64,000 bases of DNA from a virus (Duplodnaviria > Caudoviricetes), in the IMG/VR virus record IMGVR_UViG_3300037067_010449, positions 6,143 through 70,142 of that record; one strand, 5' to 3'. Of the stretch, positions 3,465 through 8,184 are shown piece after piece; position 1 is the stretch's first letter; each line of letters starts with the position of its first letter. The notes beneath the pieces were generated by a model that was not told where the DNA came from, made no database searches, and saw only the letters and a program-made list of their open reading frames with translations. The position numbers and the translations under genes are program-made.

Positions 3465-3766
3465 TGGGAGAAGTAGATAGATATAAGCCTATAATCGAAT
3501 TTGTGAATAGTAGAGGTCACTACGCTTATAGAAATTCTGTAGGCGCTAGAGGTTACAGAAAGTTCGGTAAAAAAGGTCAATTTGATATTTCAGGCGTAAC
3601 AAAAAAAGGAATTCGTTTAGAGATAGAAGTTAAAAAAGATGAGTCAGAAGTTTTAAGCGAAGATCAAATTGAATTTAAAGCAAATATGAAAAGGTGTAAT
3701 GCGATTGTTTTGGTAGTTGTTACGTTAGGGGATGTGATAGCGGAATTTAACGCGAGGGGTTTATAA
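3464..3766 (+). CDS. VRR-NUC domain nuclease
   Basis: GQFDI...IEVKK...LSEDQIEF PD-(D/E)xK pattern. Confidence 0.8.
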   Translation: MGEVDRYKPIIEFVNSRGHYAYRNSVGARGYRKFGKKGQFDISGVTKKGIRLEIEVKKDESEVLSEDQIEFKANMKRCNAIVLVVVTLGDVIAEFNARGL

Positions 3767-4664
3767 TGAAAGATTTAATTAAAGAAGATTTAGATTTTGT
3801 TCCAGATATTTTGTTGATTGATGGAATGAATTTGACAAAAAGGTATCATCATGCGTTGTCTGTTTTAAGTGACGATCACGGTGTTCCTATGGGTGCACCC
3901 TATGGAATTTTCAAGTATATTCTAGAGTGGCGAAAGAAAGTAAGAAGAATTAAAATTTATGTTTTGTGGGAAGGTAAAATGTCTTACCGTAAAGTAATGT
4001 ATCCTGAGTATAAGAACAGAAATAGGAAACAAGGGAACGATGAATTGTTTAACGAGAGTATAAAAGTACTTAAAGAAGGTTTACGGTTGTTAGGTGTTAC
4101 ACAGGTGACAGGTTCAACGGTTGAAGCGGATGACCTCGCAGGTTATTTTGTTAGTCAATTTTGTACTAAAAATATTTTGTTGTCATCTAACGATAAAGAT
4201 TGGTTTCAGTATTTGACGACGGATAAAATCAGAATTCAATCTGATTTAAAAACAATTAAGTCTAAAGAGGGTGTGGAAAAAGAATTAGGTTTTCCGCCTT
4301 GGCGAATTGTGATCTATAAATCTTTGACGGGGGACAGTAGTGATAACGTTAGGGGGTAGACAGATTTCCACACAAACTAGCACAGTTTATTTGTAATAGT
4401 TGTTTACAGAATAAAATATCTATAGTTGACGTTATACTGAGTGCTGACTGGAGTCTGTCGGAAGTTAATACTTGGTCGAAGTGGTTAGATAAATTTAAGG
4501 AAAGTAAGAGACAGGTGGAATTTGCGTATGACTTGATGAAGTACGACTCTGCTAAAATAAACGGGGAAAGTTTGGAGCAGGTTTGTCTAAAGACGGACAC
4601 TGTGGGGTTTATGAATTTGTTGGAAAAAAAGAAAATGGTAAGTCTTTTGAATTATTTCAGTTAA
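3766..4664 (+). CDS. 5'-3' exonuclease (FEN/PolA-N family), split by a -1 frameshift at 4352-4356
   Basis: LLIDG, YKNR, EADD, SNDKD, GDSSDN motifs; stops at TAG 4357-4359, but the -1 frame 4356-4664 is open and continues (G)VDRFPHKLAQ..., restoring the DNxxGV motif. Confidence 0.8.
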
Positions 4665-4668
4665 AGGT

Positions 4669-4696
4669 TAAAGTTTTTGTTTATTTTTTACGATAA
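4669..4696 (+). promoter_or_regulatory. sigma28-like promoter, copy 1
   Basis: TAAAGTTT-N12-TACGATAA; one of 7 copies with identical spacing. Confidence 0.75.
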
Positions 4697-4704
4697 TGTA
4701 ATTA

Positions 4705-4862
4705 GTACAGATTGGGAATGCAGTCAATAAGTAAGCGGTTAGTTTTTAATTGCGGTCGGTAATGGTGTTTTCTGACCGTAGATGGTGTAATCTTATGTTT
4801 ATTTGTTGTTAGGTCAAACACACTATACTGACATGTGAACAGTTCAATTCTGTTCCTGTACT
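4705..4862 (+). ncRNA. tRNA-like RNA (158 nt) with long internal insertion
   Basis: Ends GTACAG/CTGTAC pair; T-arm AACAG-TTCAATT-CTGTT abuts the 3' stem; internal hairpin TGCGGTCGG/CTGACCGTA; starts at the predicted TSS of promoter copy 1. Confidence 0.5.
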
Positions 4863-4892
4863 GTTTTATTTTTTAAAAGGAGAAAAGTAAAA

Positions 4893-5165
4893 GTGAACGA
4901 AGACAAAAATAAATGGCTAACGTTTAAGAATTTTATGTACAACGAATTGAAAATAACGAAAGACGATATTCACGAGTGGGTAAAAGAAGCCGTTATCTAG
5001 GAAGCTGAGAAACTTGTTACACAACACAAAATAGACGTGTTAGAGTTGGCTAGTGGTTTAATGAAAAAAGAAATGCTTGGTGACCGTTATGTTGTAAGTG
5101 ATGAAATAAAAAGTAAAGTGGCGCGGTTTATTGCGGATACAGTAATCGTTATGTTAAAAGAGTAA
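4893..5165 (+). pseudogene. 90-codon phage hypothetical ORF with in-frame TAG at 4998-5000
   Basis: RBS AAAGGAG, GTG start; MNEDKNKWLTFKNFMYNELKITKDDIHEWVKEAVI*EAEKLV...MLKE stays in one frame across the stop. Confidence 0.6.
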
Positions 5166-5174
5166 GTTTTAAAT

Positions 5175-5313
5175 CGGTGTTTTGCGCAGTGGAAGCGTGA
5201 TCGCGGAGAACAGGCGAATGATTTTTATTGTTTGCGTGTTTGCTCTGTCAAGTAATACGCGCGATTGTCTGAAACGGAGATAGACAGCAAGGGTTCGATT
5301 CCTTTAGCACCGA
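5175..5313 (+). ncRNA. tRNA-like RNA (139 nt): cloverleaf with a 56-nt insert in place of the anticodon loop
   Basis: Acceptor CGGTGTT/AGCACCG, D-arm GCGC-AGTGGAA-GCGT, stem ATCGC/GCGAT, variable arm TGTCT/AGACA, T-arm AAGGG-TTCGATT-CCTTT. Confidence 0.75.
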
Positions 5314-5332
5314 ATTTTTTAGAGGAGAAAAA

Positions 5333-5683
5333 GTGACAATAGACAATGTACCTGTTGATGATATTTCGTTAAAGTATATAGATGCTAGACCTGAAATTCG
5401 GAGTGCGGTTTCTTTATTATTAGAGGAGGGGGATCAATTTCTTTTATATACTGAAAAGGGGGATTCTCGGGTATTTATACACGATGTGATGGAAGAGGCG
5501 CATACGAACTGTCTGTATAATATTTTGAGTACGTTTGTGCAGCGTTATGGGCACTATCCTACGCTTAAATTTTTCGCTCATTTTTTTAATTCGTCTAACG
5601 CAGATTTGTCTATAGTGGAATCGTGGTTAAATTATTTTAATCAATTGAGAGAAAAGATGATAAAAAGGGAGTCTGGTAAATGA
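5333..5683 (+). CDS. hypothetical protein
   Basis: RBS GAGGAG; stop overlaps the polymerase start. Confidence 0.7.
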   Translation: MTIDNVPVDDISLKYIDARPEIRSAVSLLLEEGDQFLLYTEKGDSRVFIHDVMEEAHTNCLYNILSTFVQRYGHYPTLKFFAHFFNSSNADLSIVESWLNYFNQLREKMIKRESGK

Positions 5684-8184
5684 GGTGTGACTCCTGTAAT
5701 CGTTTATGCAAACATGCTAAAAATAACTGTATGCCATTTTCAGGAAATAAAAAATCTGATTTATTAATTGTAGGCGAATTCCCTACCGACGAATCAGACG
5801 GTCAGGGTTTACCGTTTGCAGGGCGTTATGCGAGATATTTAGATAAACAAGTTTTGTTGCCTGCTGGAATAGATAAAAGTAAAATTGCATTTGATAATGC
5901 AGTGAAGTGCGCTTCTCCAAAAAATAAGAAGCCGTCTGTCGGTGAAATGCGAAATTGCAGACAGTACTTATTTAAAACGATTCGAGATATGAAACCTAAA
6001 GTAGTTGTTGCTATGGGCAACATTCCTTTGTATTCTCTTCTTTATCTTGACGGTGTGAAAGTGACAGACGAAGAAAAAGGAGAAAAGAAAAAAGACGGTG
6101 GGATGTCTGGTATAACTAAATGGAGAGGGAAACAATTATGGCACCGTGATTTGAATTGTTGGGTGGTGCCTGCGTACAACCCCTCACAGATTTGTTTATC
6201 TGCGTATAATGGGATTCATTTTCCTACTAAACAAACTATAGCCGACTTGGAATTGGCTTTTAGTTTGTCTTGTCAGAAATTACCTGTTCAAATTTATCCT
6301 TTAACATACCATATAACAAATAAAAAAGAAGCTTTGAATCTTATGCAGGTAGCTTGTCAGTTACCTTATTTTGCTATAGATACTGAGGCGGAAGGTCTTG
6401 ATTGGTGGCAGACTAAGTTGACTGGAATTTCATTATCTGCTTTAGAGTACGGGAATAAAGGTTATTTTATCGACTTACAAGAGTTAGACGTTGACAATGT
6501 GGAAATAAGAAAAGGAATCCAGAATTTATTGATTAGTGATTCTATAAAGGTATTCCACAATTCAGCTTACGATATAAAATTGTTAAGAAGTCAAGGTTTT
6601 CGGGTAAATGATAAAATTCACGATACGATGTTAGACGCTCATTTACTCGATGAGAATTTTTATAAAGGATTAAAAAATCTTACTTGGCGTAATCTGAATT
6701 TTGGAGGGTATGATTACGTGTTGGACGAGTATCGTAGAGATAATAAAATCAAGGGTTTTAAGGGAATTCCAGGAAGCGTGTTAGCCCCTTATGCTGCGTT
6801 AGACGCTGTTGCTACTATGCAGCTGTACGAGAAGTTTAATGTTGAATTGAGAAAAGAAGGTATGTCTTCTTTAAGCAATAATATCTTACACCCTTCTCGC
6901 AAAGTGTTTACCGGAATGGAGTTTGACGGTATGCGAGTCCATATGCCGAGAGTAAAAGCTGTTGATCGTGTAATGCTCAGACTAATAAAAGCAGTAGAGA
7001 AAGAAATATATAAAGAAGTAGGTTATGAATTTAATTTAAAGAGTGGGCAAAAAAAACAGAATCTGTTTTTTAAAGAGTTAAAATGTCAGCCGATAAAAGC
7101 TACAAAGACTGGATTTAGTATCGATGGCGATACGTTAAAATATATTGGAGAGAAAAAAGGAAAAGCCGCGGACATCGCTAATCTTTTGTTAGATCATAGT
7201 TATCTTACAAAACAACACAGTACTTTTGTGAAAGCTATTTTGAATAATGCTAGACAGTTAGGTGAATGTTGGTTTATCCATACAAATTATAATACGACAG
7301 GGACAGCGACACTAAGAGTAAGTTGCAGTAATCCCTGTACACATAACATACCTAAAGACGGGATAATAAAAGGGATGTACATTCCTAGTGTAGGGAATGT
7401 TTTTGTTTATTCAGATATTAAAGCGGCTGAAATAAGAGTATTGGCTGTAGTTGCTATGGAAGAAACGTTGTTAGACGCTTTCCGAAATAATATAGACCCT
7501 CATGTTGCTACTTGGCGTTTGATGTTTGATAAATTAGAAAGTGAATTTCCGACAGAGGAAGAAAGAACAGCAATAAAAAGAATTGCATTTGGAATTATTT
7601 ATGGAATGCAGATCAAAGCACTGGCAAGAAGAACAGGAAAGACGCTATCAGAGGCGAAAATATACTATGAACGCTGGTTTGGCAGTATGAAAAAAGTTAA
7701 GGTCTTTCTTAAAGAGACGAATGAGTTTTTGAGGAAGAATGGGTATGTGAGGACTATCTTTAATTCAAAGAGAAGATTCCCTGATATTGCAATAGATGAT
7801 TTTTGGGCTGTTGCCAGAATGGAGAGACAAGCAGGAAATGTGAAAATACAGACGCCTGCGGCCTTGTATACGTGTGTATGTTTGAATCGTATATCTGTTA
7901 GGTTAAAGAAAGAAAAATTAAAAGCCATTATTGTACACTCCATTCACGACTGTATAATAATTGACTGCCCTAAAAATGAAGTAGAAAGAGTATCCGAAAT
8001 TGTAAAAGAAGTTTTCAATATTCAGTTAGAAATTCTTCCTATTCCGATGGAGGTCGATACGCACGTTATAAATAGTTGGGGGGAAGGAAAAGAAAGTAAA
8101 GTTGCTAATCTGATATCTAAAGTTAGTTTAAAGTTGACGTTAGACGAAAGAAATTTATTGAAGGAGTGGTTGGTAAAGAAATGA
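5680..8184 (+). CDS. polA: Family A DNA polymerase with N-terminal family-4 UDG-like domain and 3'-5' exonuclease
   Basis: UDG-like CDSC, IVGEFP, GLPFAG; exonuclease IDTE, HNSAYD, DAVAT; polymerase motifs SDIKAAEIRVLA, KRIAFGIIYG, IHDCI. Confidence 0.92.
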   Translation: MRCDSCNRLCKHAKNNCMPFSGNKKSDLLIVGEFPTDESDGQGLPFAGRYARYLDKQVLLPAGIDKSKIAFDNAVKCASPKNKKPSVGEMRNCRQYLFKTIRDMKPKVVVAMGNIPLYSLLYLDGVKVTDEEKGEKKKDGGMSGITKWRGKQLWHRDLNCWVVPAYNPSQICLSAYNGIHFPTKQTIADLELAFSLSCQKLPVQIYPLTYHITNKKEALNLMQVACQLPYFAIDTEAEGLDWWQTKLTGISLSALEYGNKGYFIDLQELDVDNVEIRKGIQNLLISDSIKVFHNSAYDIKLLRSQGFRVNDKIHDTMLDAHLLDENFYKGLKNLTWRNLNFGGYDYVLDEYRRDNKIKGFKGIPGSVLAPYAALDAVATMQLYEKFNVELRKEGMSSLSNNILHPSRKVFTGMEFDGMRVHMPRVKAVDRVMLRLIKAVEKEIYKEVGYEFNLKSGQKKQNLFFKELKCQPIKATKTGFSIDGDTLKYIGEKKGKAADIANLLLDHSYLTKQHSTFVKAILNNARQLGECWFIHTNYNTTGTATLRVSCSNPCTHNIPKDGIIKGMYIPSVGNVFVYSDIKAAEIRVLAVVAMEETLLDAFRNNIDPHVATWRLMFDKLESEFPTEEERTAIKRIAFGIIYGMQIKALARRTGKTLSEAKIYYERWFGSMKKVKVFLKETNEFLRKNGYVRTIFNSKRRFPDIAIDDFWAVARMERQAGNVKIQTPAALYTCVCLNRISVRLKKEKLKAIIVHSIHDCIIIDCPKNEVERVSEIVKEVFNIQLEILPIPMEVDTHVINSWGEGKESKVANLISKVSLKLTLDERNLLKEWLVKK

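Follow-up and report, generated by a model that had tools for sequence, protein, structure and literature searches.

A tRNA-shaped gene without a usable anticodon loop in an uncultured phage, possibly the relic of a recently disabled tRNA gene

What kind of RNA is specified by a phage gene that has the complete body of a tRNA, but in which the anticodon loop has been replaced by an insert of some 50 nucleotides? This question is raised by positions 5175-5313 of a 64,000-nt stretch of DNA (hereafter the window), for which an earlier note had proposed a tRNA mimic, acting as a decoy or in the manner of YrlA, or a tRNA with a novel intron. The window corresponds to bases 6143-70142 of a 70,142-bp IMG/VR virus record from an uncultured phage, which is classed as linear and is ~84% complete. 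It has a G+C content of ~35%, carries all genes on the + strand, and its gene starts have GGAG-type Shine-Dalgarno sequences. The coding strand shows a strong excess of G over C over the first 38 kb, with a skew of 0.3-0.4 at positions 1-38000 against ~0.1 at positions 38000-64000, the structural-gene half. The family A DNA polymerase has no close cultured relative, with at most 26% identity to that of GenBank phages, and shares 52-35% identity with its nearest metagenomic relatives. The reading preferred here, to which we assign a probability of roughly 0.5, is that the element is a recently disabled phage tRNA gene and hence a relic.

The tRNA body and the altered anticodon arm

The element consists of the following parts, all of which lie on the + strand:

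5175-5313, + strand: tRNA-shaped gene of 139 nt, CCA not encoded (ARAGORN -i and stems read from the sequence)
5175-5181 / 5306-5312, + strand: acceptor stem CGGTGTT/AGCACCG, six Watson-Crick pairs and one G-U pair
5184-5198, + strand: D arm, 4 bp, loop AGTGGAA
5200-5265, + strand: anticodon-type arm, 5-bp stem ATCGC/GCGAT (5200-5204 / 5261-5265), extendable to 6-7 bp
5205-5260, + strand: insert in place of the 7-nt anticodon loop, 56 nt (constrained folds)
5266-5288, + strand: variable region of 23 nt, 5-bp stem TGTCT/AGACA with an unusually large loop
5289-5305, + strand: T arm AAGGG-TTCGATT-CCTTT (sequence reading)
5313, + strand: discriminator A (sequence reading)

The body has the dimensions of a canonical tRNA, with an acceptor stem of 7 bp, a D stem of 4 bp, a T stem of 5 bp and a T loop of the type TTCRANN. 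Outside the loop no defect is found, as 21 of the 21 core stem pairs, the variable stem and ~12 tertiary positions conform. The latter include U8, A14, G18, G19, A21, G26, G53-C61, T54, T55, C56 and A58, and a Levitt pair G15/C48 is possible. The stem of the variable region forms with a pair probability of 0.8-0.85 in the unconstrained ensemble. The initial description of well-formed acceptor, D, long variable and T arms therefore holds, since all of them pair and the tertiary bases are present, and the ATCGC/GCGAT stem encloses exactly the 56 nt (5205-5260) that had been reported.

Detection by program depends on whether introns are allowed. In intron mode, one of the checks that the earlier note had suggested, ARAGORN calls a 'tRNA-Tyr(ata)' at 5174-5314 and puts an insert of 47 nt at position 32/33; over the whole window this mode makes only one further call, the tRNA-Gln discussed below, and on ten shuffled copies of the window (640 kb) it makes none. 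In default mode the element is missed and only tRNA-Gln 20451-20523 is found in the window. Rfam RF00005 has no match over 5000-5500, neither at the gathering score nor at E<=10, and the wider Rfam comparison that had also been suggested matched no family to 5175-5313. The fold of the whole element is only modestly better than that of shuffled sequences (z = -2.4). Taken together, 5175-5313 is a real, well-formed tRNA-shaped gene, with a shape far beyond chance.

Only tRNA-Gln(UUG) at 20451-20523 passes Rfam (40 bits) among the tRNAs of the window; it does not encode CCA and is preceded by a terminator-like hairpin. In addition, a marginal tRNA-His(GTG)-like remnant is located in an intergenic region at 35586-35657. 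It is called by ARAGORN only at a lowered threshold, has mismatched stems and is immediately followed on its 3' side by a long T-run.

The size of the insert is 56 nt when counted inside the ATCGC/GCGAT stem and 47 nt according to ARAGORN, which amounts to ~50 extra bases. In constrained folds, 5205-5260 forms an imperfect A/U- and G-U-rich hairpin (~5209-5240) of 14-15 stacked pairs with a TTTT tetraloop, followed by a single-stranded tail of ~19 nt, and it contains neither a TTCRANN motif nor CCA. The cloverleaf with this long hairpin has a predicted energy of -40.9 kcal/mol compared to -46.3 kcal/mol for the unconstrained minimum, and is thus not the structure of lowest predicted energy. 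A fold with an inner helix GCGTGTT/AATACGC, in which 7 bp close a loop of 13 nt, is less stable than either, at -36.3 kcal/mol. This helix had been described as displaying a canonical-looking Asp anticodon loop in a displaced position, a claim that has to be given up in view of the loop length (13 nt instead of 7) and the less favourable energy (-36.3 versus -40.9 and -46.3 kcal/mol). The RNA therefore has no usable anticodon loop and reads no codon.

A lineage-specific cassette with damaged neighbouring genes

The element is the last of three components of a short cassette located just before the polymerase operon. The features of this region are:

3766-4664, + strand: 5'-3' exonuclease (FEN-like) gene with a frameshift, break at 4352-4359
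4665-5332, + strand: lineage-specific cassette, 668 nt between the exonuclease stop (4664) and a small gene (5333)
4695-4862, + strand: structured element with a closing 7-bp helix AGTACAG/CTGTACT, a T-arm-like hairpin and then a T-run (z = -3.15)
4893-5165, + strand: small gene of the cassette, 90 codons, strong Shine-Dalgarno sequence, in-frame TAG at 4998-5000
5315-5320, + strand: T6 that begins 2 nt past the discriminator, followed by GAGGAG (5322-5327) and a GTG start (5333)
5680-8184, + strand: family A DNA polymerase with UDG, exonuclease and polymerase domains

Six relatives with gene maps were reached via the DNA polymerase (52-37% identity), and for five of these loci the DNA was examined. 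All six share the gene order 5'-3' exonuclease, small gene, polymerase, with genes that abut or overlap and gaps of at most ~24 nt. The cassette, which contains in order the structured RNA, its own small gene and the tRNA-shaped gene, is absent in six of the six, and no tRNA is present in any of the five loci with DNA.

The tRNA-shaped gene is tightly packed, beginning 9 nt after the stop of the cassette small gene and ending 19 nt before the next start. Only 1.1% of the positions in the window have a run of five or more T within 3 nt downstream, as the element does. T-runs directly follow the 3' ends of three elements, namely 5175-5313, the structured element 4695-4862 and the tRNA-His-like remnant 35586-35657. 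The structured element with its T-run lies 337 nt before the tRNA-shaped gene, and its T-arm-like hairpin (AACAG-TTCAATT-CTGTT, 4838-4854) is one of only four on the + strand of the window; ARAGORN makes no tRNA call for 4695-4862, even at low thresholds. The regions that follow the two structured elements, 4868-4906 and 5313-5346, are alike (73-76% identity over 21-26 nt): in each, a T-run leads into A(A/G)AGGAG, which an A-rich spacer separates from a GTG, and the first codons are similar. This shared junction may be a trace of the insertion of the cassette or may reflect a common start-site design in the phage.

The insert in the anticodon arm has no second copy in the genome and is not significantly similar to the structured element 4695-4862 (alignment scores of 29 and 24 versus 24 +/- 4.7 for shuffled sequences). 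On both grounds a repeated mobile element is ruled out as its source. A 22-nt partial complementarity between 4800-4821 and 5236-5257 (73%) is within chance.

When read through its TAG, the cassette small gene belongs to a widespread family of ~90-aa phage proteins (222 matches at E<=1e-3) with the motif DKW.MFKNFMHNELGITKEDI..W, the function of which is not known. Many members span the position of the TAG with both sides aligned, and in this variable column they mostly carry E, Q or D. The frame stays open and conserved beyond 4998-5000. For a second contig, 15,246 nt in length, an N-terminal fragment ending at the same TAG has also been recorded, and the lesion is therefore probably not a one-off assembly error. 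The closest homologue (locus L006, 1498-1767; 67% amino acid identity) is likewise interrupted, by a TAA at the invariant Trp of the family. Past the stops, the two genes differ by 22 synonymous versus 31 non-synonymous codons, with differences that are mostly synonymous or conservative, and judged from this comparison the codons after both stops look constrained.

The exonuclease gene just upstream of the cassette is also broken. Its frame stops at TAG 4357-4359, directly after a run of five G (4352-4356), and homology to the relatives resumes in the -1 frame (VDRFPHK...). The break may reflect the loss of one base or an error in sequencing; alternatively, the G run may be slippery, with the stop in the A site.

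With a G-run frameshift, a nonsense codon and an interrupted tRNA, three lesions fall within 1 kb of a metagenome-derived record, which might suggest that the element is an assembly artefact or a chance resemblance. Such an origin is nevertheless very improbable, as the shuffled sequences gave no ARAGORN call in 640 kb, the insert, which has no second copy in the genome, sits within a perfect stem, and the TAG-ended fragment of the small gene recurs on the second contig.

The position of the element, 175 nt downstream of a TAG in a gene that is open and conserved past this codon, also raises the question of whether it is an amber suppressor for TAG 4998-5000, or the relic of one from a TAG-recoded phage. 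A locus in another record has a comparable arrangement: in IMG/VR 3300033562_000919 (L018), an intact homologue of the same gene is followed after ~190 nt by an 87-nt class II tRNA(CUA) at 1820-1906, whose T arm is similar to that of 5175-5313. However, the triplet CTA, which would give a CUA anticodon, is absent throughout 5175-5313, and with an arm of this length the RNA is far from able to contact a codon; the element is thereby ruled out as a suppressor of the upstream TAG. Recoding of TAG in this phage is ruled out as well, since TAG ends 14 of the 84 long ORFs, and for the four ORF pairs that can be joined in frame across a TAG, the Pfam domains stay within one ORF per pair, which marks them as separate genes. 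Furthermore, the L006 homologue has a different stop (TAA), with no suppressor tRNA in the parts of its record that were examined, and the record with the tRNA(CUA) gives no clear sign of recoding in its coding density over the 40 kb examined. In either form, a suppressor origin is the least probable of the explanations considered.

Transfer RNAs are thus found beside the small-gene family elsewhere, and there they are ordinary ones: in addition to the tRNA(CUA), a normal tRNA-Ile(UAU) is located ~130 nt upstream of the L006 homologue. No comparable RNA is present near the closest full-length homologues (L004 and L005).

Splicing and known classes of structured RNA

If the insert were removed from the transcript, the element could still be a true tRNA interrupted by an intron of a new type, which host enzymes would excise to yield a working class II tRNA. 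Two observations speak in favour, namely that the intron mode of ARAGORN assigns 47 additional nt to the anticodon loop and that introns in phage tRNAs are on record (PMC6784885). The latter are the 'enigmatic' introns in the tRNAs of Lak megaphages (Devoto et al. 2019, PMC6784885). As in these tRNAs, the insert of the element occupies the anticodon loop and contains no self-splicing core. However, removal of the Lak introns leaves a normal loop and the introns recur across genomes, whereas here no loop is restored and the insert recurs nowhere.

The failure to restore a loop was established by removing each possible contiguous segment, one at a time and in three stem registers (162 cases). 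The criterion was that the remaining arm should have a stem of 5 bp and a loop of 7 nt in which position 33 is U and position 37 a purine. A 5-bp stem is kept in 28 of the 162 cases, but U33 together with R37 is obtained in none of them; the best candidates have the loops TAATACG, which is ARAGORN's own solution, and CTACGCG. The insert also has no T-loop motif, no CCA end and not the dimensions of a mini-tRNA. A relaxed scan for bulge-helix-bulge motifs returned promiscuous G-U matches only, none of which is placed so as to restore a loop, in agreement with the first impression that no clear motif of this type is present. The same holds for the remark that the insert is too short for a group I intron, as a group I core needs ~200 nt or more compared to 47-56 nt here, and no intron or small-ribozyme family of Rfam matches the element at E<=10. 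Finally, genes for Rnl1-type, Rnl2-type or RtcB ligases are not found in the 70-kb record (84% complete). With no excision that yields U33 and R37, no suitable bulge-helix-bulge, no ribozyme and no ligase, the proposal of a novel intron is disfavoured and has become improbable. Gene finders that tolerate introns would nonetheless label 5175-5313 as 'tRNA-Tyr(ATA) with intron', which is wrong; the element should be counted neither as decoding capacity nor as evidence for recoding.

Several other RNAs combine tRNA-like parts with additional structure. YrlA mimics the acceptor, T and D arms of tRNA without an anticodon, as does the element. The ends of the YrlA RNA are located on the 'anticodon' side, where they form part of a Ro-binding stem, and its gene adjoins a Ro orthologue. 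In contrast, the ends of 5175-5313 form an acceptor stem, and no Ro/TROVE domain is encoded in the 70-kb record (84% complete). Consequently, of the earlier term 'tRNA mimic' the shape stands, while a YrlA-like function does not agree with the topology and the intron variant is disfavoured for the reasons given above.

A tmRNA is not indicated either, as ARAGORN -m and RF00023 give no match. Moreover, position 3-70 is a G-C pair instead of the alanine determinant G3-U70. The intron, suppressor, YrlA and tmRNA readings all fail because each lacks a defining feature.

Theta ribozymes, which are minimal HDV-like ribozymes, directly adjoin phage tRNAs on the 3' side and cleave at the discriminator (Kienbeck et al. 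2024, PMC10879173). Ribozymes of the HDV-like type are defined by a core of nested double pseudoknots and a catalytic C. They resemble the present case in that a structured RNA of ~50 nt is joined to a phage tRNA without encoded CCA. However, the additional RNA of the element is located inside the anticodon arm, its 3' flank consists of a T-run and a ribosome-binding site, and no HDV-like family of Rfam is matched at E<=10.

Disabled tRNA gene or functional mimic

The element is an orphan, with no relatives in the collections searched. In IMG/VR, exact 21-23-mers retrieved no homologue, and a two-anchor pattern of D arm and T loop retrieved unrelated tRNA-Met only; in JGI metagenomes the two-anchor pattern gave two chance matches and one adjacent tRNA pair, again without a homologue. 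Among 185,579 species genomes, an exact 21-mer of T arm plus acceptor had 0 matches and a looser T-arm/acceptor pattern had 43, none of them a tRNA. Searches of GenBank phages by blastn with the whole element and with each half found only the generic T arms of phage tRNA-Ser. A covariance model (R1) run on 49 IMG/VR records with the neighbouring gene family gave one match, at E = 0.19, that is not tRNA-like, and querying other contigs for the proteins of the window gave no result. An origin from a host tRNA was rejected, since the acceptor (C1-G72 onward) matches no cellular tRNA sampled.

Covariation among related phages, proposed at the outset as a check, thus had no homologues to draw on, and conservation argues neither for nor against a function. 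The outcome that had been named as pointing to a simple pseudogene, a unique insertion that is not conserved, largely applies: the searched collections hold no homologue, and the cassette is missing in all six relatives.

On the preferred reading, the ancestor would have been a phage tRNA gene, by its shape of the long-variable-arm type, that suffered an insertion in its anticodon loop. The loop is now occupied by ~50 A/U-rich bases folding into a long weak hairpin and a tail; the acceptor, the T arm and the D/T elbow are intact. The element would have arrived on the 668-nt cassette as foreign DNA, landing between the exonuclease and the small gene that precedes the polymerase, in surroundings that appear impaired by the nonsense TAG in the cassette small gene and the frameshift in the exonuclease just upstream.

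RNase P, RNase Z and the CCA-adding enzyme recognize the stack of acceptor and T arm together with the elbow, not the anticodon. Since these three enzymes need only the intact top half and the elbow, the RNA would probably still be cut out of the transcript of the replication operon by tRNA-end enzymes. Such an excision would leave a stable, non-decoding RNA and would sever the transcript that joins the genes on either side. What the sequence itself shows is the tRNA shape, an anticodon loop that no single excision recovers, a position specific to this lineage and the lack of homologues in the collections searched; that the element is transcribed and processed and serves no selected function is what we infer from these observations.

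The damage to the neighbouring genes and the presence of another marginal tRNA remnant (35586-35657) in the same phage suggest a relic. So does the lack of genes for an RNA ligase, RtcB or a CCA-adding enzyme that could provide a dedicated maturation route; for the last of these, too, the 70-kb record (84% complete) contains no gene. A neutral relic requires that the insertion be recent, because the body is without defect, and an unblemished body after much neutral drift is unlikely. The unblemished body, the single lesion in the small gene and the frame that is open past the TAG all point to a recent event.

Phage tRNA pseudogenes provide a close parallel, as they are derived from tRNAs and non-decoding; the location beside damaged genes and the second marginal remnant in the same phage fit as well. 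Typical tRNA pseudogenes have scattered stem mismatches, whereas 5175-5313 has a perfect body that is disrupted only once, by a large insertion placed precisely at the anticodon loop. If the element is a relic, it matters mainly for annotation.

The main alternative, which we consider less probable, is that the element is a functional, non-decoding tRNA mimic. Its top half and elbow would attract the processing enzymes RNase P and RNase Z as well as the CCA-adding enzyme, and perhaps also a synthetase that does not depend on the anticodon, a type to which LeuRS and SerRS belong. Since none of these partners reads the anticodon, the anticodon region would be free to vary. The RNA could then serve as a processing 'punctuation mark' between the messages of the small gene and the polymerase operon, or as a sponge or decoy for a host factor that binds tRNA.

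Such a role would account for a flawless tRNA body despite the loss of the anticodon loop, and the tight fit between two genes, the T-run immediately after the element and the second structured element upstream, which is followed by a similar junction of T-run, GGAG and GTG, would look like a selected processing signal and thus weigh against a relic. The lack of an encoded CCA in both tRNA-Gln and 5175-5313 is consistent with a common host maturation route, as the host must add CCA in both cases. However, no homologue was found anywhere searched, so that neither conservation nor covariation lends support, and six of the six relatives do without the element. Furthermore, the upstream element is not tRNA-like to ARAGORN, the two elements are not significantly alike, and the cloverleaf is not the predicted minimum-energy fold.

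A more specific proposal, which we regard as rather unlikely, is that one or two anticodon-less tRNA look-alikes are built-in cutting signals or decoys that are excised by the tRNA-end enzymes of the host. If this were true, the flanking genes would be uncoupled, and a stable, CCA-tailed and possibly aminoacylated RNA would occupy host factors that bind tRNA; the system would be a counterpart in bacterial viruses of tRNA punctuation or of mascRNA-type processing.

If a mimic, the element would join the few phage tRNA-shaped RNAs that take no part in decoding, among them RNA C and RNA D of T4. Because its anatomy is simple, with only the anticodon arm replaced and the top half intact, it would then also be convenient material for learning how RNase P, RNase Z, the CCA-adding enzyme and synthetases that ignore the anticodon treat such RNAs in infected cells. 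Its interest is modest unless a processed and abundant RNA is expressed.

A precedent comes from phage T4, whose tRNA region encodes two stable small RNAs, RNA C and RNA D (also termed species 1 and 2), with a function that was unknown as of a 2010 review (PMC3014915). RNA C has the same length as the element (139 nt), a canonical T arm and expanded interior hairpins. However, inspection revealed no similarity in sequence to the element, whose acceptor and D arm are better formed than those of RNA C. The settings differ as well, as the T4 RNAs are part of a cluster of eight tRNAs while 5175-5313 is located between protein genes. When ARAGORN is applied in intron mode to RNA C (phage T4 70908-71046, 139 nt), which has two long inner hairpins, it calls the 3' part as 'tRNA-Leu(taa)' with a 5-nt insert.
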